64,000 nucleotides of DNA, from positions 64,001-128,000 of the IMG/VR virus record IMGVR_UViG_3300045004_000088. One strand, 5' to 3'. The notes under the pieces are model-generated. The model saw nothing but the letters and a program-made list of their open reading frames with translations. It was not told where the DNA came from and searched no databases. The position numbers and the translations under genes are program-made. This document shows, in pieces, positions 13,178 through 63,790 of this stretch; the first letter of the stretch is position 1; each line of letters begins with the position of its first letter. This DNA is from a virus.

Positions 13178-14839
13178 TTAACACACCTTTTGACGGACGA
13201 CTTGGCAGCTTCGCACAGTACGAGAGCCGCACACTCGTTCGTTGACGTAGCACCCCAGTTTCGGTGGACGAACTGGAGGGTCTACTTTCTTCTTACAACC
13301 GGAGCAACACCCCGAATTGTTTTCTGGTTTCCACGGCTTACCAAACTCTGGCGCACCGGGCAAGGTGGCGTTGTTGAAGTAGCCGTCGTCGGAATTATAG
13401 CTGGTCCTCAGCAGCGAGCCTGATTCATCAACCTTGAAAACGTGGTGGTCCTTGACCGGCTCCCCGTGAAGGGTTACTAGGTCCGACTCCCAAATATAGT
13501 CAAGACCAAGTTTAACTTCATCGAGAATTTCCTCGTCTTCTGCGCCGTCTACGAACCCCGCCATGCCGAAGCCCTGAGCGACCAAAAGTTGCTCGTGCGG
13601 GACATCAACCTTACAGAAGTACAGCGGATTGTCAGACTGACCGACAATCATTGTATCCGCCAGTACCATCTGAGTGCTTTTTTCGCGAATCAAGAAATCC
13701 TGATCGCCGATCTTCACAGCCTTGTCGGTCGGCAAAACCTCGACGCTTTCGGTCGAGGCCGCACGAACCGTGGTCAACCCCCACGTCGCAAAAACGCTCG
13801 CAACTTCAGTTGCGTAAGGCCCGGTAGCGAGTTCTGTCAACATGGTACTCGCAATTGAAGCCATGTACCTCGGAGTCAGCGGGGCGTTTTGTACCGCACG
13901 GAACAAAACCGTAGCCATTTCGTCGCGTGCGATGATCAGTGCTTCGCGTGTGCCGATACCGCCCGGTGCCTTCACTTTGGCGTAAACGGCCATGATCGCA
14001 GCGTAAAACGCACTGCTGAACACGCGGCTGAAACTGTGGACCTCGCTGGACAACTGGTTCTTCGGCGCAGATCTCGGCAGTGTGGCCGGATCGATGTAGT
14101 AGTACGGAACCGAAGCGTCACGCAGCCCGCCGATCACCCCGTTGATCGCATAGCCCAGATCCGGTGCTACGGACGACGCAATGGTACTGCTTTGGGCCGC
14201 GTCCATCTGCTGTGCAGTATAGGTCAAAACCGGGTCAATCGACATCGCATGCAGGATCGAGCCGCAGTCGGCGAACGCTTCGTGAAACGCACCCTGTTCA
14301 ATGAATGGAGTATTGAACAGCACGGGCTTCAAAGAGTCAAGTACCGAGTGAAAGAATTCGTGGGTGACCACGTCGTTCGACAAACAGGTGTGGACCACCT
14401 GCCCGTTCACAGGGTTCCGGCCCGTGAAGAACTGCAACGACTCGCGATTGTAGAAGGCGTTCAACTGGTTCCCGGCGTTCGGGTAAACGCGAAGAACTTT
14501 GACCGCCGCCCACTTCGGGAGCGTGCCGAGGTACTTCTTCAACATCCTTTGGGCCGAGCAGAGCGTAGCCATGCAGTTGGCCGCGAGCGCCTGTGGTGAG
14601 TTCGGATCGGGGGAATAACCCTTGTAGTTCTGAACGGAAAACGGCGGGTCCGGGTTCTCGGTCGGAACCTGAACGTTTTGGATGAAGGGGGTGTTTGACT
14701 CCTCGTCCATGAAGAAACGGATCTCACCGTCACGGCGGATCACGCTCTCTGAAGGGGTAGGGGTTGGCGGGCGAGACGGACCATACGGGCGTCTGTTCTG
14801 CTGTGTCTGCGTCACTGCTAGGTTTTTCTTGGTTTCCAT
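13178..14839 (-). CDS. zinc metallopeptidase, thermolysin-like (gluzincin), with Cys-rich C-terminal tail
   Basis: VVTHEFFHSV is an HExxH motif. The downstream GAFHEAFADCGS matches the M4 third-ligand motif (NEAxSD). The C-terminus is SGCCSGCKKK...GCYVNERVCGSRTVRSC. Confidence 0.55.
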   Translation of the reverse strand: METKKNLAVTQTQQNRRPYGPSRPPTPTPSESVIRRDGEIRFFMDEESNTPFIQNVQVPTENPDPPFSVQNYKGYSPDPNSPQALAANCMATLCSAQRMLKKYLGTLPKWAAVKVLRVYPNAGNQLNAFYNRESLQFFTGRNPVNGQVVHTCLSNDVVTHEFFHSVLDSLKPVLFNTPFIEQGAFHEAFADCGSILHAMSIDPVLTYTAQQMDAAQSSTIASSVAPDLGYAINGVIGGLRDASVPYYYIDPATLPRSAPKNQLSSEVHSFSRVFSSAFYAAIMAVYAKVKAPGGIGTREALIIARDEMATVLFRAVQNAPLTPRYMASIASTMLTELATGPYATEVASVFATWGLTTVRAASTESVEVLPTDKAVKIGDQDFLIREKSTQMVLADTMIVGQSDNPLYFCKVDVPHEQLLVAQGFGMAGFVDGAEDEEILDEVKLGLDYIWESDLVTLHGEPVKDHHVFKVDESGSLLRTSYNSDDGYFNNATLPGAPEFGKPWKPENNSGCCSGCKKKVDPPVRPPKLGCYVNERVCGSRTVRSCQVVRQKVC

Positions 14840-54755: not shown

Positions 54756-55433
54756 TTAACCGCGTTGAATGTCGGCGAGGTGATCCTCGGTTCGACGCTT
54801 CTGGAACGTAGCGACACCGTGATCGGTCTTGAACGTCAGACCACGCAAGTCGCCGTTCTTGAACAACTGTTTCATCTGAGCAGGTACGCCGCCGTACCAC
54901 GGGTGTTCGAGACACCAGAGGTCGTGGATGCAGATGATCCCGCCCGGCGTCACTCGCGGGAACAGGGTCAACAGTTCGTTGTACCGCTCTTTCAGTTCCG
55001 TGTCGAGCCAGAGGAAATCGTAAGTCAAATCCGGGTGCATGCCCGCAAAGAACTCGGTGGTAGTGGTAGTCACAACCGTCGCGAACGAACTCAGACCCAT
55101 CGCCGCCAGTTTGTCTTTGGCGCGACTGGCGACCGTTCCGTCTTTCTCAATGGTCGTAAGGTGGCCGAAACCGTTGTCGCGGAGGGCCAGTGCCATGTAC
55201 TGAGCCGAGACGCCGATGTTGGTGCCGGTTTCCAGAATCGAAACCGGCTTAACCATCCTGACCAAACCGTAAAGGAACTCGCCCTCTTCGATGGCGATCC
55301 CGGTAGGGTCTTGCATGTCTTGGAAGTCGGAGTGTGACAGCATGCTGTCGCGGCTGACGGGTCCGTACTTTTCCTTGTGAGAAAGGATCTTCTTGTGCGG
55401 ATCGAGTTCTAGCAACTTGTCGGTGGCGTTCAT
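54756..55433 (-). CDS. class I SAM-dependent (O-)methyltransferase, family-3 OMT-like
   Basis: VSILETGTNIGVSAQYMALAL is the LE.GT..G.S SAM-binding motif. GGIICIHD is motif post-II. Confidence 0.6.
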   Translation of the reverse strand: MNATDKLLELDPHKKILSHKEKYGPVSRDSMLSHSDFQDMQDPTGIAIEEGEFLYGLVRMVKPVSILETGTNIGVSAQYMALALRDNGFGHLTTIEKDGTVASRAKDKLAAMGLSSFATVVTTTTTEFFAGMHPDLTYDFLWLDTELKERYNELLTLFPRVTPGGIICIHDLWCLEHPWYGGVPAQMKQLFKNGDLRGLTFKTDHGVATFQKRRTEDHLADIQRG

Positions 55434-56119
55434 TGTATCCCTTTGTTGACAAAAGCGAACAACCGAAGTGGTTCTTGGTGTTGGTAGCAGAATTCGGCCG
55501 ACACGTCCTCAAAGCCCTCGAACTCTTTCCTGAAATCATCGAACGTGCGTTCGTCCCGCTGATGGAATTCGCCGACTATGTACTTGGTCTTCGCCAAAGT
55601 TCGCTTGGCTTTCGCCAAAAACCATTCGCCACCTTCACAGTCGGTTTTCAAAAGGTGGATTCTCTCGTAGCCGCTCATCAAGTTGTCCAAATCAACGCGG
55701 GCCACAGCAACCTCGGAGCAATTCTCCAGAGGGCGAGGTTCTGCAACGAAACGGCGTCTGAAGCCCCAGTCGTCGTTGCGTGAGAACCAGAAGATCTTGT
55801 TGCACCCCAACGCTCCTTCGATCACCGTGATCGCGTTGCCGGCGTTGTTCAAAGCGATGTTGTGTCGCAGGATCTCGATGTTCTCTGGGAGCGGTTCGAT
55901 GGCGACACAGACCATGCCCAACTGTGCTGCGAGCAAAGAGGCGTGGCCCGCGTAAGCGCCAACGTCCAAGAAGACTTCGCCGGCTTTGGCGAGCCGGCGA
56001 ATGTTGTACTCGTCCGAATCGATGGCGTCACGGCCGATGATCGCGGTCGCGATGTTGGTGTCGGTGCTGTTGGGTCGAACGGCCGACAGCACACCTTTGA
56101 AATTGATGACTTCGTTCAA
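55430..56119 (-). CDS. FkbM-family methyltransferase
   Basis: VFLDVGAYAGHASL matches DVGAN.G..S. LLKTDCEGGEW matches the FkbM KIDVEGAE block. Confidence 0.6.
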   Translation of the reverse strand: MNEVINFKGVLSAVRPNSTDTNIATAIIGRDAIDSDEYNIRRLAKAGEVFLDVGAYAGHASLLAAQLGMVCVAIEPLPENIEILRHNIALNNAGNAITVIEGALGCNKIFWFSRNDDWGFRRRFVAEPRPLENCSEVAVARVDLDNLMSGYERIHLLKTDCEGGEWFLAKAKRTLAKTKYIVGEFHQRDERTFDDFRKEFEGFEDVSAEFCYQHQEPLRLFAFVNKGIQ

Positions 56120-57162
56120 CGCAACTCCTCAAGGAATCTTCTGACGCGAGCGGCTTCGTAGTCCCAGTTGAACAGCCCCTTAGCCGTTTCCCAACAGGCA
56201 TACGACATCTCGTTGGCGCGGTGGATGTTGTCGGTAATGATCCTGATCGTCTCGACCAGAGAAGCCAAATTCCAATCCGCCTCCAAGCATGTGCGGAACG
56301 GCATCAGGTACTGCCGGGCTGTCCGGTACTGGAAGAACCGACGTGGGATGATCGGAATGCGACCGAGGGCCACGCTCTGCAAGAGCGAGTGTCCGTAACC
56401 TTCGTAGGTCTTGAAGTAGTAGCCGCAAGAACTCGATTGGTAAGCGGCTGGCATGTCTTTTTCGGCCAACATGCCGTAAGTATTGTTGATGCCGTAGTCC
56501 TTGAAGGTACATTCGGGCATCGCCGTTTTCAAATCGTTCCACAGGCCGAACACACTGATGTTGTTCGTCGGCGCAACGTTGCCGCTCTCGCAGTGTGGGC
56601 AAACGTCCCCCCAACACCAGCAATCCTTGTCCCAGTGCCAACCGTTGAAGGAGGCGAGACAGTTCGTAAAGGTGGCGACCGTCTTCAGGTCTTCGGCTTT
56701 GATCGGGACGAATTCTTTCTGATGGTACTGGTAGCCGAGTTCCTGCGAATAGAAGATCTTGTGGGCCGAGGACCGCATGTAAGAACCGTAGTCCGACGAC
56801 ATGAAGTTCTTCACGAACGACCAGTCGTAGATGGACTTCTCGTTGCCGGCCTGGGCGATGATCTTGATGTTCTTCTTGGGGTGCGACTTGAGCAGGTTCT
56901 GGAACAGTGGCAGGCTCTCGCACCGCGTGATCAGAACCGCGTCCCAGTCCGTAGCCAAGAACTGATCCCGGTTGATGGCGTAAGGGAAGTGCTGGATGTA
57001 CTGGTCGGGTACGCCCTGGAGGTTTTTGTAGTGGTCGGTTGTTACCGGGAGCCACACCCCGATCATGCCCTGAGCCGTCACCCAGTTGACGAAATCGGGA
57101 TTCGGGAAATACAGTTCGTGTCCGAGTCGCTCGTGGAACAGCAGGAACAGACTGCGTCCCAA
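56116..57162 (-). CDS. putative GT-B-fold glycosyltransferase
   Basis: C-terminal TYEGYGHSLLQSVALGRIPIIP resembles the GT-B E(G)FG..LLEAMA.G.PVI motif. The product is Trp/Cys-rich and otherwise unrecognised. Confidence 0.35.
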   Translation of the reverse strand: MGRSLFLLFHERLGHELYFPNPDFVNWVTAQGMIGVWLPVTTDHYKNLQGVPDQYIQHFPYAINRDQFLATDWDAVLITRCESLPLFQNLLKSHPKKNIKIIAQAGNEKSIYDWSFVKNFMSSDYGSYMRSSAHKIFYSQELGYQYHQKEFVPIKAEDLKTVATFTNCLASFNGWHWDKDCWCWGDVCPHCESGNVAPTNNISVFGLWNDLKTAMPECTFKDYGINNTYGMLAEKDMPAAYQSSSCGYYFKTYEGYGHSLLQSVALGRIPIIPRRFFQYRTARQYLMPFRTCLEADWNLASLVETIRIITDNIHRANEMSYACWETAKGLFNWDYEAARVRRFLEELR

Positions 57163-57197
57163 CCCGCCATGATGATGATCTGAAAATATCTTAATGA

Positions 57198-58010
57198 CTA
57201 CTCCTTGAAACCACCGTGTGGTTTTGCCAATGCCGCTTCCAAAGACATGCCCGAATTAAGTCTCTTTGAAAGAGTGTGATAGTTTATGTTGTATTCTTTG
57301 GCGATCCTCTTCCTGTCGATCTTTTGCAAAGCGGCAATCAAATCGCCGTCAAACTCTTTCTGAAGTTGCTTGTATGAAACTCCTAGCTTCCTAGCCAAAG
57401 ACTTCAAAGTGAATGGAACACCTTCCCACTTTACGATTACATATTTCGACTTGACATTAGCGGCTTCGGCTACAGACAAACCGTTTCTAAGTTTCTGCCT
57501 GAATGTGGTCTAGTTGACGCCGAAATGGTCTGCCCAATCCTTCGCAGACTTCGACTGACCCTCGTGTTCAAACAACTTAGCTGGATTATGCGGAATGGCT
57601 CCCTGTTTCAATCGAGCCGTCCTCAGTTTTTGTCGCGTTGCCACCGAGTGTGTGAGTCGTCCATCGGCCGGGACCATGACGTTGTATCCTTTGTCGGGGT
57701 CACAGCTTTTCGCCACGTCGATGTGGAAAGTTTCTCTTGCAATTAGATTGTCGGCGGGACAGTTTTCCAACACGCTCATCACGAACACATCGCTGCCGTA
57801 CTTGTTCCAAGCATTTTGGAGGTGCGGGTTATGGTGAGTGCCAAGACGCAAATGACGACGGTGACGATACCATCGAGTCTTGATGTTGACTGCACTGCCG
57901 ACGTAAACTTTGCCGTTAACGCCATTCTCGATTTTGTAAACACCGGACTTGAGGTGGTCGCTGAAGATCTTCAAGCTCACCTCATTATTCTGTTGATGAA
58001 TTCGACCCAC
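57198..58010 (-). pseudogene. GIY-YIG homing endonuclease interrupted by an in-frame TAG
   Basis: The N-terminal ORF (58010..57510) has SGVYKIENGVNGKVYVGSAVNIKTRWYRHRRH, a GIY-YIG core. A TAG at 57510..57512 is followed in the same frame by 10 open codons and a 93-aa ORF with repeated NUMOD1-like helix motifs. The readthrough gives GVN*TTFRQKLRNGLSVAEAA, which mirrors the later GINYHTLSKRLNSGMSLEAAL, so the stop sits where a Tyr is expected. Confidence 0.6.
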
Positions 58011-58897
58011 TCAGGACCGACTTTCTTCACGTCGAACCGTTCTCGGTTTTTCAACGAGTTCTGGTGGGCGATCTCACGAAGGTTCTTGTCAGCCAGTATC
58101 CGGCGGGCGTTGCTGATCATGGCGGGAACTTCGCGGTCCAGATAGAGTGCCATGTTCTCTTCTTCTAGACCGTGGCCGTTGTTGTAACAGACGGTCGGAC
58201 AGCCGGCACACCACGCCTCGATTTGCGACATGATCAGGGCTGCCGGAACGGTGCCGAAAGAGACGAAGCAGGCACTGTCACGGAACCGTTCTCGCATCTG
58301 CGGTTCGGGGATCTCGCCCATCCCGCCGACCTCGTCCGTTTCCTTGCCGGAAAGCATGACGGGTACTTCCTTCTTGAACTGCTTCATCAACTCCCAACCG
58401 CAGCCGTGGCCGCGTTTGTGGATGCTGTTGCAGGTGGCGTAGCAAACGGGGTACTTGCCGGTCCACGGCTCGAAGTCCTCGAAATACTTGCCGAAGTACA
58501 AGAGCTTTTGCTTGTGTTCGGGACAGCCGGCCTCACGATGACGACGGTGGTCCTTGACCGAGTACGGAGCGATGTATGCGTGCGGGTAATCACGCGCCAT
58601 CGCCGAAACAGCCTCGTACTGCCAAGTGTCGGCCTGTCCGAAACTTACGAGGACCACCCGTTTGCCCTTGTCGAGCAAATCTTTCATCACCGCCGCGTAG
58701 TTCGGCACTTGGTGAAGGACGATCAATTGGAAGTCATTGATGTTCGAGTTGGCATCGGTGACGCCGGGTATTTTTGGTCGCTGTTTCGATCCGATGTCCC
58801 AGTCGCCGCCGACCGAATAGCCGAGGTCTTTGAACATTCGGGCGTGGTCGTATTCCAGCGAAGCATGGCAAGATTGCACAAAAAGACGATGACTCAT
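57977..58897 (-). CDS. putative glycosyltransferase (GT-B-like C-terminus)
   Basis: ATG at 58897 after AGGAGG. C-terminal FGTVPAALIMSQIEAWCAGCPTVCYN weakly resembles the GT-B EAMA.G.PV motif. Confidence 0.3.
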   Translation of the reverse strand: MSHRLFVQSCHASLEYDHARMFKDLGYSVGGDWDIGSKQRPKIPGVTDANSNINDFQLIVLHQVPNYAAVMKDLLDKGKRVVLVSFGQADTWQYEAVSAMARDYPHAYIAPYSVKDHRRHREAGCPEHKQKLLYFGKYFEDFEPWTGKYPVCYATCNSIHKRGHGCGWELMKQFKKEVPVMLSGKETDEVGGMGEIPEPQMRERFRDSACFVSFGTVPAALIMSQIEAWCAGCPTVCYNNGHGLEEENMALYLDREVPAMISNARRILADKNLREIAHQNSLKNRERFDVKKVGPEWVEFINRIMR

Positions 58898-58949
58898 GGC
58901 ACCTCCTACTCCTAGTATAGTTAGGCTCGCTATTACAAAACGGAGACAC

Positions 58950-60152
58950 ATGGCCAAAATTGATCTATCCAAAGAATTCTGCTACCTGCCCAACTTCGTT
59001 CGCGAAGACATCCTGATGGCCCAAACTGTCGGCCAGCAGTTCGGGTGGCAGATCCAGAACTTCGACCTCCCTTCAGCTTGGAAGGACACATGCGGCACTG
59101 GCGTCAACGTCGCCGTCCTCGACACCGGGGTCGATTTGACGCACCCGGACCTAATCGAGAACCTGATCGAAGGTTACAACGTCATCAACCCCAAGCTGCC
59201 GCCGACCGATGATAACGGTCACGGTACGCACGTCGCCGGCATCATCGCGGCGTCGAACAACGCAATCGGCGTCGTGGGCGTTTCGCCGTGCGCAAAGATC
59301 ATCCCCATCAAGGTTCTGAACCGGATGGGTGCGGGCAGGATGGATCACGTCATCGAAGGCATCAAAGTCGCTGTTGACAAGGGTGCCGATCTGATCTGCA
59401 TGTCTCTCGGCACCCGCAACCCTCTGGACGAGGTATTGAAGGCGATCAAGAAAGCGGCCGACAGCGGGGTCGTGTGTTTCGTGGCCGCAGGCAACGCCGG
59501 CCGCACGGCACAGCTACTGTATCCCGCCGCGTATGACATGACCATTAGCATCGGTGCCGTGGACGAGAACTCGATGCGAGCGTCGTTCAGTTGCACCGGC
59601 CCCAATCTCGACTTCGTCGCGCCGGGCGTGGACATCTACAGCACCGTGCCTGTTTCGAGCTACGCGGTGATGTCGGGTACTTCTCAGGCCGCTCCGTTTG
59701 CGTGTGGTGTCGGCGCGTTGCTGTTGTCGCACCACCGAATGACCAAGCCGGGGGCCAAGTTCAAGAAAGAAGACTACGTCAAGGCACTGAGCAACAACGC
59801 ACTGACCGTCGAAAACCTCGACGTGAAGTACGCGGAACTGGGTAAGAGATTCTTTCAAGGCTTCGGGATCATCAACCCGGTCAACTTCTTGGACTGGGTC
59901 GAGAACAAGAAAGTCGATTCGGTGGCGCAGACCATCGCCGGTGCTTTGAGCGACGTGGGCATGCTCGATACCACGAAAGCCGACGTGTCGGCTTTGCGTA
60001 AGTTGTCTACGGATTTGAACAAGGCTCTGAAGCAGTTCCCGAAGGTGAATCAGAAGGCGGCGTCGAAGAAGGCGGCGGTTCAGAAAGAGATGATTTCATC
60101 TGCTTTACTACGTCGCGTATCAAAGCAGCCCGCTCATAATCCTCAGCCTTGA
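58950..60152 (+). CDS. subtilisin-like serine protease (S8 family)
   Basis: GTGVNVAVLDTGVD carries the catalytic Asp. HGTHVAGIIAA carries His. MSGTSQAAPFACG carries Ser in the GTSMAxP block. ATG at 58950 after GGAGAC. Confidence 0.75.
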   Translation: MAKIDLSKEFCYLPNFVREDILMAQTVGQQFGWQIQNFDLPSAWKDTCGTGVNVAVLDTGVDLTHPDLIENLIEGYNVINPKLPPTDDNGHGTHVAGIIAASNNAIGVVGVSPCAKIIPIKVLNRMGAGRMDHVIEGIKVAVDKGADLICMSLGTRNPLDEVLKAIKKAADSGVVCFVAAGNAGRTAQLLYPAAYDMTISIGAVDENSMRASFSCTGPNLDFVAPGVDIYSTVPVSSYAVMSGTSQAAPFACGVGALLLSHHRMTKPGAKFKKEDYVKALSNNALTVENLDVKYAELGKRFFQGFGIINPVNFLDWVENKKVDSVAQTIAGALSDVGMLDTTKADVSALRKLSTDLNKALKQFPKVNQKAASKKAAVQKEMISSALLRRVSKQPAHNPQP

Positions 60153-60672
60153 TGCAGTCTTTCATCCGACCTTCAAGGTACTTGATGCGTTCAGGCAGCG
60201 GCACGCCACCGTGCCGCTTGACCGTCGCGAGCGTGCGATCAACGGTAGACTCTTTGGGTTCGCCACGGTCCTTGCGTTTCTTCCACGCTTTCGGCACCTT
60301 GCCGTTGTGAATCATGTCGCCGTGGTGGTTCATCAACATCGTCTCGATGTCGTCGCGGAAGGCATCGTAGCAGGCCGGGCAGCCGAACTGATTGGCCTTT
60401 TCGATTTCGAGCGGGTTGATGCCACAGACGGGGCATTTGTGCGAGGCGGCTACGGCTTTGGCCGCTGCCGCCTTTTGCATCATTTCTTGAAACTGATTCA
60501 AGGAGTTATTCAGCACGGGAAGCGATTTGGCCGAGGTGGAGGGAGCGGCCCCCTGACCGAGAGCGCACTGGGGACAACACTGAATCGTCTTGGTGCCTTG
60601 CGGAGTGATCTCCGCAAGGGTGAGATTCTTGGGATTGGAACAGGGTTGGCCGGTGCGGGGGCAAACGCTCAT
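60007..60672 (-). CDS. zinc-ribbon protein with C-terminal UVR domain (McsA-like architecture)
   Basis: It has several CxxC pairs (CPRTGQPC, CCPQC, CPVCG...CPAC). C-terminal ERIKYLEGRMKDCIKAEDYERAALIRDVVKQMK matches the UvrB/UvrC UVR motif. Confidence 0.45.
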   Translation of the reverse strand: MSVCPRTGQPCSNPKNLTLAEITPQGTKTIQCCPQCALGQGAAPSTSAKSLPVLNNSLNQFQEMMQKAAAAKAVAASHKCPVCGINPLEIEKANQFGCPACYDAFRDDIETMLMNHHGDMIHNGKVPKAWKKRKDRGEPKESTVDRTLATVKRHGGVPLPERIKYLEGRMKDCIKAEDYERAALIRDVVKQMKSSLSEPPPSSTPPSDSPSGTASEPCSNP

Positions 60673-60674
60673 GA

Positions 60675-61322
60675 TTACTTCTTCTTGCGTTCGATCAGTT
60701 TGTTTTCGTCGTTGTAATCCCTGATCTTCTTCAACAGTTCCGCGATCTCGTCCTTCGTCAACTTTTCCGCGTTGTCCTTCGTGAACTTCTCGGCGTAGTT
60801 TTCGAGGATCTTGGCGGTTTCCTTGCGAAGATCAGTGAGTTTTTCGACGTAGCCCTTCAACTCGTCCAGAGTCGGCGCGTTCTCGTGGGTGGGCGGCTTC
60901 AGGGCATACTTCTTCAACTCATCTTGCCAGAAACCGTTGAGTCTTGTCAACTCGAATGTGAGCCGTTGCAGGTTGGAAAGGTAGAAAGACTGACGGTCGA
61001 ATTCGGGCAAGTCTTTTACCTTCAGTTCCTTTTTATCGCTGACCCGCGTCAGGGTGACGTTTTTCCAGTATTCGGGGTCGTTGAACTTTTTGCTCCACTC
61101 GGTGTAACGCTTCAGTGCGTGTTCGTAATCTGACTTGACCGGCAGATCTTCTTCCAGCTTGGGAACGGCCTGCACTTTCTTGTTTTCCACTTTCGTCGGG
61201 GGCGGCACCTGACCCGCGAAGGACGTGCCGATCAAAGTCGCAAATACCAACATCGATGCAAAGAGTTTCATTTGAATTTCCTCGTTGTGGAACCGGACAG
61301 GGTCATTATAGTCCGTTTTCAC
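60675..61322 (-). CDS. secreted protein with signal peptide
   Basis: MKLFASMLVFATLIGTSFAGQ followed by a K/E-rich helical body. Confidence 0.4.
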   Translation of the reverse strand: MKTDYNDPVRFHNEEIQMKLFASMLVFATLIGTSFAGQVPPPTKVENKKVQAVPKLEEDLPVKSDYEHALKRYTEWSKKFNDPEYWKNVTLTRVSDKKELKVKDLPEFDRQSFYLSNLQRLTFELTRLNGFWQDELKKYALKPPTHENAPTLDELKGYVEKLTDLRKETAKILENYAEKFTKDNAEKLTKDEIAELLKKIRDYNDENKLIERKKK

Positions 61323-62140
61323 GGAAACGCTGTACCGCTGACCAGAACCGCGCCCCCGTCAGAGGCAAGAGCCGAAGAACCGGCCGCAGTCGTCCTTCTT
61401 ACCCAAACGGGATACCCCTCTGTCGGTCCTAAATGCCCAATGGAAAGCGGATTTTCCATTGATGGCGTGTAGAAGCTGACGCCGGTTGGGGTTGTGGTCG
61501 GTGCGTCGATGAGCGGCGCGATCCCGTTAATCGGACTGCCGGGTACGATTTTGGATGTTGTCACGGTTGACGCGGGAGTCAAACCGTTTGAAGTCACCGT
61601 CAGCGTCGGATGAAACCGTTTGCCAGAAGTTCCGGCGAAAATGACGGTAAACACCACGGTCGTGGACGGGCCGATGCCCGTCTGGGCCGTAACCGTAACG
61701 TCTTCGAGGCCATCGACGGTACGAATGGCCGTTTGGAAATTCGCTGCCCAAACGCCGAGGTCGGAGTTGTAAGAAAACGTAAAGTCTTCGTCGCCGTGGC
61801 CCAACGTCAAGCTGCCGGTTGTCGGGTCACCGACCACGGTAACGGTTTGTATTTCGTCAACGAACGCGAAGCCCAGTGCCATGTCGGACCCGCCGGCAAC
61901 TTCGTCGGTTATGGCGACCGTCGAGTTCCACAGCGTTTCGGTGTTGCTGTTGTTGAAGACGTAGAAGCACATGTAATCAACGAGTCCGTCTTCCTGCTCG
62001 TCGGCCGTGACGTTCTCGAACAGATTGTTTATCCCGTTCGGAACGGGATAAGAGGACGGATCGCCGCCGAGTGAGGCGAATTGGTTTTGGTTTGACGCTC
62101 CCCCGGAGAGGACGTGTACGATGTCGCCGTCTTGAATCAT
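61319..62140 (-). CDS. hypothetical T/S/G-rich protein, possibly structural (Ig-like)
   Basis: 273 aa with β-rich, low-charge composition. Confidence 0.35.
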   Translation of the reverse strand: MIQDGDIVHVLSGGASNQNQFASLGGDPSSYPVPNGINNLFENVTADEQEDGLVDYMCFYVFNNSNTETLWNSTVAITDEVAGGSDMALGFAFVDEIQTVTVVGDPTTGSLTLGHGDEDFTFSYNSDLGVWAANFQTAIRTVDGLEDVTVTAQTGIGPSTTVVFTVIFAGTSGKRFHPTLTVTSNGLTPASTVTTSKIVPGSPINGIAPLIDAPTTTPTGVSFYTPSMENPLSIGHLGPTEGYPVWVRRTTAAGSSALASDGGAVLVSGTAFP

Positions 62141-62195
62141 AAAACCTCCCGACTATCTAGGACGCTACAATAACAGTTATAGTACGGGAGGAACG

Positions 62196-63110
62196 ATGGG
62201 AACTACCTTCGGGTGCGACAGCGAGTTCATTTTGACCCTCCACGGCAAGTACAAAAGTGCCGTTCCGGTTTTGCGAGGTACGAGGGACAAACGTCAGCGG
62301 ATCGACGGCGTAGAAATCTTTCACGACAACGTTCTGGCCGAAGTCGCAATCGAGTACAGCAACACTTGGCACCAAGTACGCGGCAGTTTCCATCACGCCT
62401 TGAAGACGCTCGCACGGGCGGTCGATCCCTGTAAGTTGAACTTGTTCGCATCGGCCGACTACCCGCGTTCCGAGCTTACTGACCCGGAAGCAAAAGAGGC
62501 CGGCTGTTCGGAAGAGAAAGACGCCTACACCAGAAGCACGTTGCCGTCTCAGGAAGACAAGATCAAGACGGGAGCATTCCGAACCGCCGGCGCACACATC
62601 CATCTCGGTGGGGACGGCGTTCTACAGAACAGCATCCGATTGAAACTCGTGGTTTACGCGATGGACCTGTTCGTGGCGGTGCCGTCTTTGTTCCTAGACG
62701 ACAACATTTTCGCCCGCGAGCGGCGGGCGATGTACGGTCGGGCGGGCAGCTACCGGGAGAAACCATACGGGCTGGAGTACCGCGTCCTGGGTCCGTTCTG
62801 GTTGAGATCCCCTTCTACGGCCGAACTGTTTTACAACTTGTCGATGTTCGCGTTGGACTTTGTCGAGTCGGGCAAGTTCGACAGGTTCTGGAGCATTGAC
62901 GAGAAGAAGCTGTTCGACGGCAAGAAAGACGCCTACCAGTGTCACGGTTACAACAAGGATCTGTTGATCGACACGATCAACACCTACGACATGGTAGAAG
63001 CGGAGAAGTTCTTGGAGTTCATCTCGCACTTCTTGCCGGCGCAACTGGTAAGAGATTTCGAGCGTGAACGCGAGAGCGAGCCGGACCTCTACACGTCGTG
63101 GGACATTTGA
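62196..63110 (+). CDS. hypothetical protein
   Basis: 304 aa. GGGAGG precedes the ATG. No motif securely recognised. Confidence 0.4.
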   Translation: MGTTFGCDSEFILTLHGKYKSAVPVLRGTRDKRQRIDGVEIFHDNVLAEVAIEYSNTWHQVRGSFHHALKTLARAVDPCKLNLFASADYPRSELTDPEAKEAGCSEEKDAYTRSTLPSQEDKIKTGAFRTAGAHIHLGGDGVLQNSIRLKLVVYAMDLFVAVPSLFLDDNIFARERRAMYGRAGSYREKPYGLEYRVLGPFWLRSPSTAELFYNLSMFALDFVESGKFDRFWSIDEKKLFDGKKDAYQCHGYNKDLLIDTINTYDMVEAEKFLEFISHFLPAQLVRDFERERESEPDLYTSWDI

Positions 63111-63790
63111 TCTCTGACCTTGCGGCAGATCGGCCGGACATCAACCTTGCGACACTTCTGGCACTGCCATTTTTGATCGAGGGACGCGAAGGCTCGTACT
63201 TCAAGTACGAGCCTCGTTTTGTGAATGTACGAACGGCGACCGCACTCGTTGCACAAGCTCGCCGTGTGGTTGGCCTTCTTGCCGTTTTGTTGGGGCTTGG
63301 CCGTCTTGATGTCGCGGTAGTGCGAGTAGAGCAGGTTGACGAGGGCGGTTGGCATCGGCGGGGCGGGGAACGTCGATTTCTTGAGCCACTCGTAGACCTT
63401 GCCGCTCTTGTGGACGCTCGGCGGAACGACCGACTGGTGACGCCGACCCCGAAACTCGATGCCGTCGAACTTGCAGATGGTAATGTTCGGATTCGGCGAG
63501 AGGAACAGATGGTGGCAGGACTTGTTGCTCTTGAACATCGGGTGCGGGCAGTGCCGCGTAAGATCGAAGATCATCTCGTTGGCTTCTTCGGTGTCCCCCT
63601 CAACGTCCATGACGGTGCCGAGCAAAAATCCCATGTTGGCGTCGGGCATCTGATCAAAGGCGGCGCGATACTTGTCGGCAGACCAATCAACTTGCCAGTC
63701 TTTGAAGACGGGAATCTTGCTTCCGGGGTACAAGGCGATGGGGTTGAAACCACAGGTCAGGTACGCTTCAAAGTAATTCGCGATGTCCAT
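63089..63790 (-). CDS. Prim-Pol (bifunctional primase/polymerase N-terminal domain) protein with zinc fingers
   Basis: YPGSKIPVFKDW and GFLLGTVMDVEGD match the Prim-Pol P.SK.P..GW and vDvD motifs. The C-terminus has CNECG...CQKCRKVD. Confidence 0.5.
   Translation of the reverse strand: MDIANYFEAYLTCGFNPIALYPGSKIPVFKDWQVDWSADKYRAAFDQMPDANMGFLLGTVMDVEGDTEEANEMIFDLTRHCPHPMFKSNKSCHHLFLSPNPNITICKFDGIEFRGRRHQSVVPPSVHKSGKVYEWLKKSTFPAPPMPTALVNLLYSHYRDIKTAKPQQNGKKANHTASLCNECGRRSYIHKTRLVLEVRAFASLDQKWQCQKCRKVDVRPICRKVRDQMSHDV

Follow-up and report, generated by a model that had tools for sequence, protein, structure and literature searches.

An in-frame TAG in a free-standing GIY-YIG homing endonuclease gene of an uncultured huge phage: a probable nonsense mutation in a degenerating gene

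Introduction

I-TevI, encoded by the td intron of phage T4 (PDB 1MK0/1LN0), consists of an N-terminal GIY-YIG nuclease domain of about 92 residues with catalytic Tyr/Tyr/Arg/His/Glu/Asn, a flexible linker, and a C-terminal DNA-binding region made up of a zinc finger, a minor-groove helix, and a single helix-turn-helix (HTH). Its catalytic domain alone has little affinity for DNA. Free-standing GIY-YIG endonucleases are represented by the Seg family of T-even phages, while MobE, in the nrdA gene of Aeromonas phage Aeh1, is an insertion that disturbs its host gene. Free-standing endonuclease genes of phages are inserted between or into conserved genes, are patchily distributed, and are thought to spread through double-strand-break repair with co-conversion of the flanks. 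In the model of Goddard and Burt, homing endonuclease genes pass through a cycle of invasion, fixation, degeneration, and loss. The I-TevIII open reading frame (ORF) is truncated in T4 and intact in RB3. TAG-recoded phages (genetic code 15) include members of the crAss-like and Lak groups (e.g., PMC9523058, PMC10607447, and PMC8346664); in recoded genomes, many genes contain an in-frame TAG, for example 41 ORFs of phAss-1 according to one abstract.

Here, we describe a GIY-YIG gene interrupted by a TAG in a stretch of 64,000 nucleotides from an uncultured phage (IMG/VR record IMGVR_UViG_3300045004_000088, positions 64,001 to 128,000), referred to below as the window. The gene resembles that of I-TevI in its N-terminal GIY-YIG domain with the same catalytic residues, its linker, and its C-terminal HTH-type DNA-binding region. 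It differs in being free-standing rather than intron encoded, in having three tandem beta-beta-helix-helix-helix modules, in carrying 7 extra N-terminal residues from a neighboring gene, and in its TAG interruption. Like the Seg and MobE genes, it is a free-standing endonuclease gene in or between conserved phage genes and patchy among relatives; it differs in that it lies 7 codons into the downstream gene, takes over the start of that gene, and supplies a replacement that is now ATT, and in its host, an uncultured huge phage with a genome of about 400 to 476 kb. With degenerate homing endonuclease genes it shares an apparently disabling single lesion and relatives that are intact, otherwise damaged, reduced to a relic, or empty. 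It differs from them in nothing essential: it adds a case from huge phages to a familiar pattern, that of such a gene probably caught early in decay. The likeness to TAG-recoded phages lies in the in-frame TAG and in a relative, LR756511.1, that carries a tRNA with anticodon CUA (tRNA-CUA); however, the 64 kb contain just this one interrupted gene, and TAG demonstrably serves as a terminator.

Results and discussion

Among the proteins encoded in the window are a portal protein, the large terminase, and a major capsid protein of T4 type; the last shares 78% identity with its counterpart in LR756511.1, an uncultured phage of 595 kb. JGI metagenome contigs carrying the locus are 140,679, 403,392, and up to 475,914 bp long. 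The source is therefore a huge phage. A nucleotide search of GenBank phages with positions 56000 to 60000 gave no match, and neither did a tblastn search of the GenBank phage collection with the protein of gene B, the downstream neighbor of the endonuclease gene. Scanning a metagenome contig collection with the gene B alignment produced 171 pattern matches, none of which was a relative.

The features of the locus are as follows.

57977 to 58897, minus strand: gene A, the upstream neighbor, 306 aa, with weak glycosyltransferase group 1 similarity; stop codon TGA
57954 to 57974, minus strand: captured gene B start plus the first 6 codons, TTG AAG ATC TTC AGC GAC CAC (MKIFSDH), fused in frame to the endonuclease
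57513 to 57974, minus strand: upstream endonuclease ORF, 154 codons from TTG 57974
57510 to 57512, minus strand: in-frame TAG, aligned with TAC (Tyr) in related contig L002 and with CAT (His) in related contig L003
57201 to 57509, minus strand: 103 open codons past the stop, encoding the rest of HTH module 1, a degenerate module 2, and module 3; terminal TAG at 57198-57200
57198 to 57479, minus strand: 93-aa ORF from TTG 57479, beginning 10 codons past the internal stop at the third helix of module 1
57212 to 57218, minus strand: insertion of 7 nt (CACGGTG) when aligned at the DNA level with L002 and L003, by which the basic tail (PVKRR.../PVRRR...) is frameshifted to PHGGFKE and a stop
57193 to 57206, minus strand: Shine-Dalgarno sequence AAGGAG (57201-57206), a 5-nt spacer holding the endonuclease stop, and ATT (57193-57195)
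56116 to 57195, minus strand: gene B, glycosyltransferase-like, with the conserved N terminus (K/R)(I/L)F(S/A)DHHHGGLGRS and with the endonuclease lodged between codons 7 and 8

The I-TevI-like ORF runs on the minus strand from TTG 57974 to the TAG at 57512-57510, past which the same frame stays free of stops for 103 codons, up to the TAG at 57200-57198. TTG 57974 lies 2 bases past the gene A TGA (57979-57977) and is preceded by GAGG; GTG 57980/58010 are alternative starts (JGI call; ORF list). The frame begins MKIFSDH-LKSGVYKIENGVNGKVYVGSA, and in its 154 codons the 7 derived from gene B are followed by the GIY-YIG domain, then by the linker, and finally by the beta-hairpin and first helix of HTH module 1. 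No Shine-Dalgarno-like motif was found upstream of TTG 57479, in contrast to the endonuclease start (GAGG) and the gene B ATT (AAGGAG).

The upstream ORF matches Pfam PF01541 (E=1.9e-10) and PHROG homing-endonuclease families. In a phmmer comparison, it matches the I-TevI catalytic domain (1MK0) with E=1.4e-15, Met1 of I-TevI aligning with residue 8, and all catalytic residues (Y, Y, R, H, H, E, and N), including the tyrosines of GIY and YIG, are present. An intact ortholog, P0002, is encoded at the same locus of L003. Its AlphaFold (AF2) model, with a mean pLDDT of 87, shows an I-TevI-like nuclease (TM score of 0.84 to 0.89 to 1LN0/1MK0), a helical linker, and three beta-beta-helix-helix-helix modules, in that order, so that nuclease and DNA-binding modules, split by the TAG in the window, form one chain of 256 aa in P0002. 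The residue equivalent to the stop, His147, opens the second, recognition-type helix of HTH module 1 in the model. Termination at the TAG leaves half of this module, and a restart at TTG 57479 would omit the recognition helix. Because the TAG falls inside a folded HTH module and not in the linker, it looks like an accident rather than a designed split. No second intact GIY-YIG copy able to complement the gene was found in the window.

Minus-strand translation confirmed the single in-frame TAG within a GIY-YIG ORF that an initial annotation of this DNA had reported, and the coordinates given there, together with the 93-aa ORF from TTG 57479 located 10 codons past the stop, were correct. The catalytic domain, said there to end at the TAG, ends near residue 99, and the TAG lies 55 residues further on, past the linker and inside the first HTH module. 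In place of the two NUMOD1-like repeats described, we found three HTH-type modules, and NUMOD1 was not called by Pfam in this protein. The proposed alignment of the stop with a tyrosine holds for P0003, the protein of L002 (TAC), and for both later internal repeats, GVSY and NINY (the latter had been read as GINY); the intact P0002, however, has His (CAT). With TAC in L002 and Tyr at the equivalent place in modules 2 and 3 of the window, one C-to-G change would explain the TAG.

A group I intron was considered, as suggested by the JGI name "group I intron endonuclease" and the exon-like MKIFSDH, and was ruled out. No family of Rfam matched at the gathering score across the window, and none at E<=1 in 56900 to 58200. 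The ORF occupies the whole insert, with only 2 nt left before the start of gene B, so there is no room for non-coding intron sequence.

Genes A and B (306 aa and about 360 aa) are adjacent across a family of related contigs, the lineages of which are about equidistant (71 to 83% protein identity). Their junction is found in five states.

Empty (five lineages): L004, L006, L007-9, L012/13, and L014; gene B starts 1 to 8 nt past the gene A stop, with a 4-nt overlap in L014
Intact endonuclease: L003; P0002, 256 aa, 58% identity over 95% of the read-through product
Nuclease half deleted: L002 (10001-10648); P0003, 215 aa, lacking the N-terminal half of GIY-YIG; also on a 586,525-bp NCBI contig
Relic of 26 codons: L010 (2412-2500) and L011 (212-300); an 89-nt A-B spacer encoding MKLINYSTLIRRGVPLEQSLSKPIQR and then a stop, recognizably the last HTH module, the rest being deleted
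TAG interrupted: the window lineage

Relatives that are otherwise collinear thus differ in whether this one site is occupied by the gene, which is the behavior of a mobile gene, and the patchwork of empty, intact, damaged, and relic sites is what a cycle of invasion, fixation, degeneration, and loss predicts. The DNA-binding region of P0003 is well kept, with 4 unique changes past the stop position versus 4 in the intact L003; either its deletion is recent or a nuclease-less DNA-binding protein has been retained. The endonuclease gene of the window (57198-57974) is compositionally foreign to the phage: its GC content is 48% (43% past the stop) versus 55% for the window, and its GC3 is 57% versus 71 +/- 7% for window genes. 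Other endonuclease genes occur nearby in related contigs. The S8 peptidase beside gene A in L012 (1-1526) carries an intein with a LAGLIDADG endonuclease, giving a product of 775 aa versus 418 aa in the window, and L002 has a free-standing LAGLIDADG/NUMOD3 gene (13978-14823) a few kilobases from the locus.

At empty sites, gene B begins (A/T/G)TG (AAG/CGA/AAA) AT(C/T) TTC (AGC/AGT/TGT) GAC CA(C/T) CA(C/T) CAC GGC GG(T/C), with the product M(K/R)IF(S/C)DHHHGG; the more divergent L012 has MLLFADSHHGG. In the window, the endonuclease is flanked by two copies of the first 7 gene B codons, at 57954-57974 and 57175-57195 (minus strand), which encode the same KIFSDH with other codons (AGC versus TCA for Ser). 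The left copy is an empty-site-type start in a GAGGTGA context, with the endonuclease frame following CAC (codon 7); in alignments, this captured MKIFSDH start directly opens gene B in the empty L004, L006, and L007. The right copy follows the endonuclease stop and reads TC ATT AAG ATA TTT TCA GAT CAT CAT CAT GGC GGG, or (I)KIFSDHHHGG. AAGGAG and a 5-nt spacer precede it, as they do at the endonuclease 3′ end in L002 and L003, which have GTG as the start. The endonuclease's own start has been lost in the window, which has CTC where L003 has GTG. To judge from these sequences, the left copy looks like the recipient allele and the right copy like sequence imported with the endonuclease. From this we infer an imprecise homing event, with the break at codons 7-8 of gene B as the putative target.

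ATT occupies the position at which all gene B orthologs have ATG, GTG, or TTG. These orthologs are 359 to 362 aa long and all have DHHHGG, a motif dropped by the 348-aa JGI call (internal TTG 57162), and no canonical in-frame start was found upstream of the ATT. Gene B therefore probably initiates at ATT, an arrangement that the insertion of the endonuclease would have created. Genes A and B belong to a sugar-/nucleotide-modification-type cluster (54756-63790) that also includes two methyltransferases, an ATP-grasp-like ligase, a Prim-Pol, and the S8 protease; the cluster is kept across the huge-phage group and is absent from the GenBank phage collection as searched with gene B by tblastn.

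Synonymous sites are saturated between all lineages, making dN/dS unusable; residue changes unique to each of three lineages were counted instead.

58 aligned residues before the stop (linker): window, 1; L003, 5; L002, 6
97 aligned residues past the stop: window, 31; L003, 4; L002, 4
Past the stop, minus module 2: window, 9; L003, 3; L002, 3

The window differs from the other two in its distribution of changes across the stop (31 versus 8 past it against 1 versus 11 before it; Fisher P=1.6e-5), and the contrast persists without module 2 (P=0.014). The first 16 codons past the stop have 0 lineage-unique changes, and the conservation of module 1 is perfect both before and after it. The excess starts about 17 codons past it and is concentrated in module 2, which has a 2-codon deletion between 57333 and 57332 and has lost its conserved R..G.S.EEAL signature. 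The nuclease of the window scores 156 bits with an outgroup HMM, versus 144 for the intact L003, and departs from conserved columns 3 times versus 6. In a simulation of neutral change, the probability of the frame still being open was 0.47, 0.33, 0.18, and 0.06 after 20, 30, 50, and 100 substitutions. The well-kept nuclease, the unchanged 16 codons past the stop, and the lack of a second stop point to a TAG that arose later than most of the divergence. Among the 120 matches listed, no donor for the divergent modules 2 and 3 was closer than P0002/P0003; module 2 may have diverged for a different reason, for example through earlier relaxation or through retargeting, and part of the excess may predate the stop and have a source besides pseudogene drift.

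We consider it likely that the TAG arose by nonsense mutation of a TAC codon and that the free-standing homing endonuclease gene carrying it is degenerating. A free-standing I-TevI-like GIY-YIG gene would have invaded the junction of the conserved sugar-modification genes A and B in a huge-phage lineage, taking over the original ribosome-binding site and start codon of gene B and providing, at its own 3′ end, a replacement ribosome-binding site and start (now ATT). A single-base change from TAC to TAG would then have struck the Tyr codon at the beginning of the recognition helix in DNA-binding module 1. Translation would stop after the nuclease and linker and leave the three-module DNA-binding region detached. 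An I-TevI-type enzyme without this region should miss its target, which makes homing most likely non-functional. The gene would stand early in a cycle of invading, becoming fixed, decaying, and being lost.

Decay had also been the preferred reading of the initial annotation, and it gains from the intact ortholog, the TAC in L002, the independent degeneration or loss of the gene in sister lineages, and the use of TAG as a terminator. It gains further from the place of the stop within a folded module, the excess of window-specific changes past the stop, the foreign composition of the gene, and three additional lesions of the window copy: the 2-codon deletion in module 2, the frameshifted tail, and the lost start codon. 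The description of the mutation as recent is plausible and has rough support in the nuclease, the linker, and the 16 codons past the stop, all of which are without excess change; modules 2 and 3 are strongly diverged in this lineage. Against decay stand the 103 codons without a further stop, an upstream part that is unworn, with nuclease and linker if anything better conserved than in the intact homolog, and the tRNA-CUA encoded by the closest complete relative, LR756511.1, about 68 kb of the window phage's 403- to 476-kb genome having been scanned. A broken homing endonuclease gene matters little by itself, since decay after fixation is routine. The locus is of modest value in showing, at one site in uncultured huge phages, the empty, intact, nonsense-interrupted, nuclease-deleted, and relic states, with one copy that captured the start signals of its neighbor and left that neighbor with an ATT start.

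The conservation of the upstream part is also what would be expected if a truncated protein had been retained, that is, if selection maintained the 154-aa fragment as a low-specificity nuclease or a regulator, possibly together with a 93-aa HTH protein made by re-initiation at TTG 57479. The linker has 1 lineage-unique change in 58 residues, the nuclease matches the family consensus better than the intact homolog does, and the downstream ORF remains open. Sister L002 keeps the converse product, a slowly evolving DNA-binding region without the N-terminal half of the nuclease. Nevertheless, we regard a selected one- or two-piece protein as unlikely. The break hits a folded module, not a linker, just where the recognition helix begins; a product re-initiated at the TTG lacks that helix, and no Shine-Dalgarno sequence precedes the TTG. 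Modules 2 and 3 evolve fastest, and module 2 is without R..G.S.EEAL. The low DNA affinity of the isolated I-TevI catalytic domain likewise speaks against a selected nuclease fragment.

Whether TAG is always a stop in this phage was addressed by a census of TAGs with at least 60 open codons on each side. Under the standard code, coding density is about 90% of the window (crude self-trained gene model), and the large structural genes are unbroken. No other TAG in the 64-kb window has a clear coding signal on both flanks. The endonuclease TAG ranks second in the census on a weak score, which reflects its atypical codon usage. Prim-Pol (63089-63790, minus strand) stops at TAG exactly where its L002 ortholog stops at TAA, 5 of the 30 JGI gene calls in the overlapping contig L001 end in TAG, and the TAG-terminated genes (Prim-Pol and the endonuclease itself) lack tandem back-up stops. 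ARAGORN found no tRNA in the window or the extra 4 kb of L001 (together about 68 kb of a 403- to 476-kb genome), nor in the related loci, and Rfam found zero RNA families, and so no tRNA, in the whole window. The checks that the initial annotation had proposed, for further in-frame TAGs and for a suppressor tRNA, thus turned up neither, in the 64-kb window and in those 68 kb, respectively. TAG recoding was rejected for the readable part on the basis of its standard-code density, the lack of a second in-frame TAG, and the role of TAG as a genuine terminator.

LR756511.1 encodes about 64 tRNAs, a tmRNA, and one tRNA-CUA (about 179,588-179,661, or L018 29888-29961, minus strand), which ARAGORN labels Pyl. 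It uses the standard code: across the 8,065 residues that align with window proteins, a single stop was found, a TAA lying ahead of a true start, and its conserved genes are free of in-frame TAG. About 19% of its predicted genes end in TAG, with no enrichment of same-frame TAG junctions. Sites with coding flanks number 6 for TAG versus 30 for TAA; all 6 have a start codon 0 to 3 codons downstream, which marks them as ordinary same-frame gene junctions and not as evidence of read-through. The genes flanking its tRNA-CUA map to 39.4 kb and 46.2 kb of the window in differing orientations, a synteny too loose to conclude that the window phage lacks this tRNA.

These data bear on amber read-through, in which a suppressor tRNA (CUA) of the phage or its host, or leaky termination, would yield some full-length endonuclease in a small or time-restricted amount. 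Read-through would account for the 103 open codons, the perfect conservation of module 1 across the stop, and the absence of decay in the nuclease, and LR756511.1 shows that a tRNA-CUA can accompany TAG as an ordinary stop. We nonetheless judge it quite improbable, given zero tRNAs in the window and the extra 4 kb of L001, TAG-terminated genuine genes without tandem back-up stops, and no second in-frame TAG in 64 kb. The variable arm of the LR756511.1 tRNA-CUA is short, so that this is presumably not a bacterial-type tRNA-Tyr, and with a GC content of 42% versus 55%, LR756511.1 is not a close proxy for the window phage. A stronger form, in which the TAG is a programmed switch and the potentially toxic full-length endonuclease is made only upon expression of an amber-suppressor tRNA such as LR756511.1 shows this clade to be able to encode, strikes us as highly improbable. 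If read-through by a phage suppressor tRNA were true, the gene would be a suppressor-gated selfish nuclease and would suggest a function for the puzzling suppressor tRNAs of standard-code phages.

The nonsense mutation preferred here presupposes that the TAG is real. L001 (JGI sample 3300045005) equals the window across 16,491 bases, bar three clustered positions far from the locus, and L005 (JGI sample 3300044451) is identical to it across 6,047 bases. Single-base errors do occur in metagenome assemblies generally, but nothing specific was found here, and a sequencing or assembly artifact with a true codon of TAY is scarcely credible, since both contigs carry the TAG in identical sequence in independent assemblies from two samples and the split ORFs were called independently by JGI. 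The three positions at which the window and L001 differ are 49260, 49261, and 49263, each with A in the window and G in L001.
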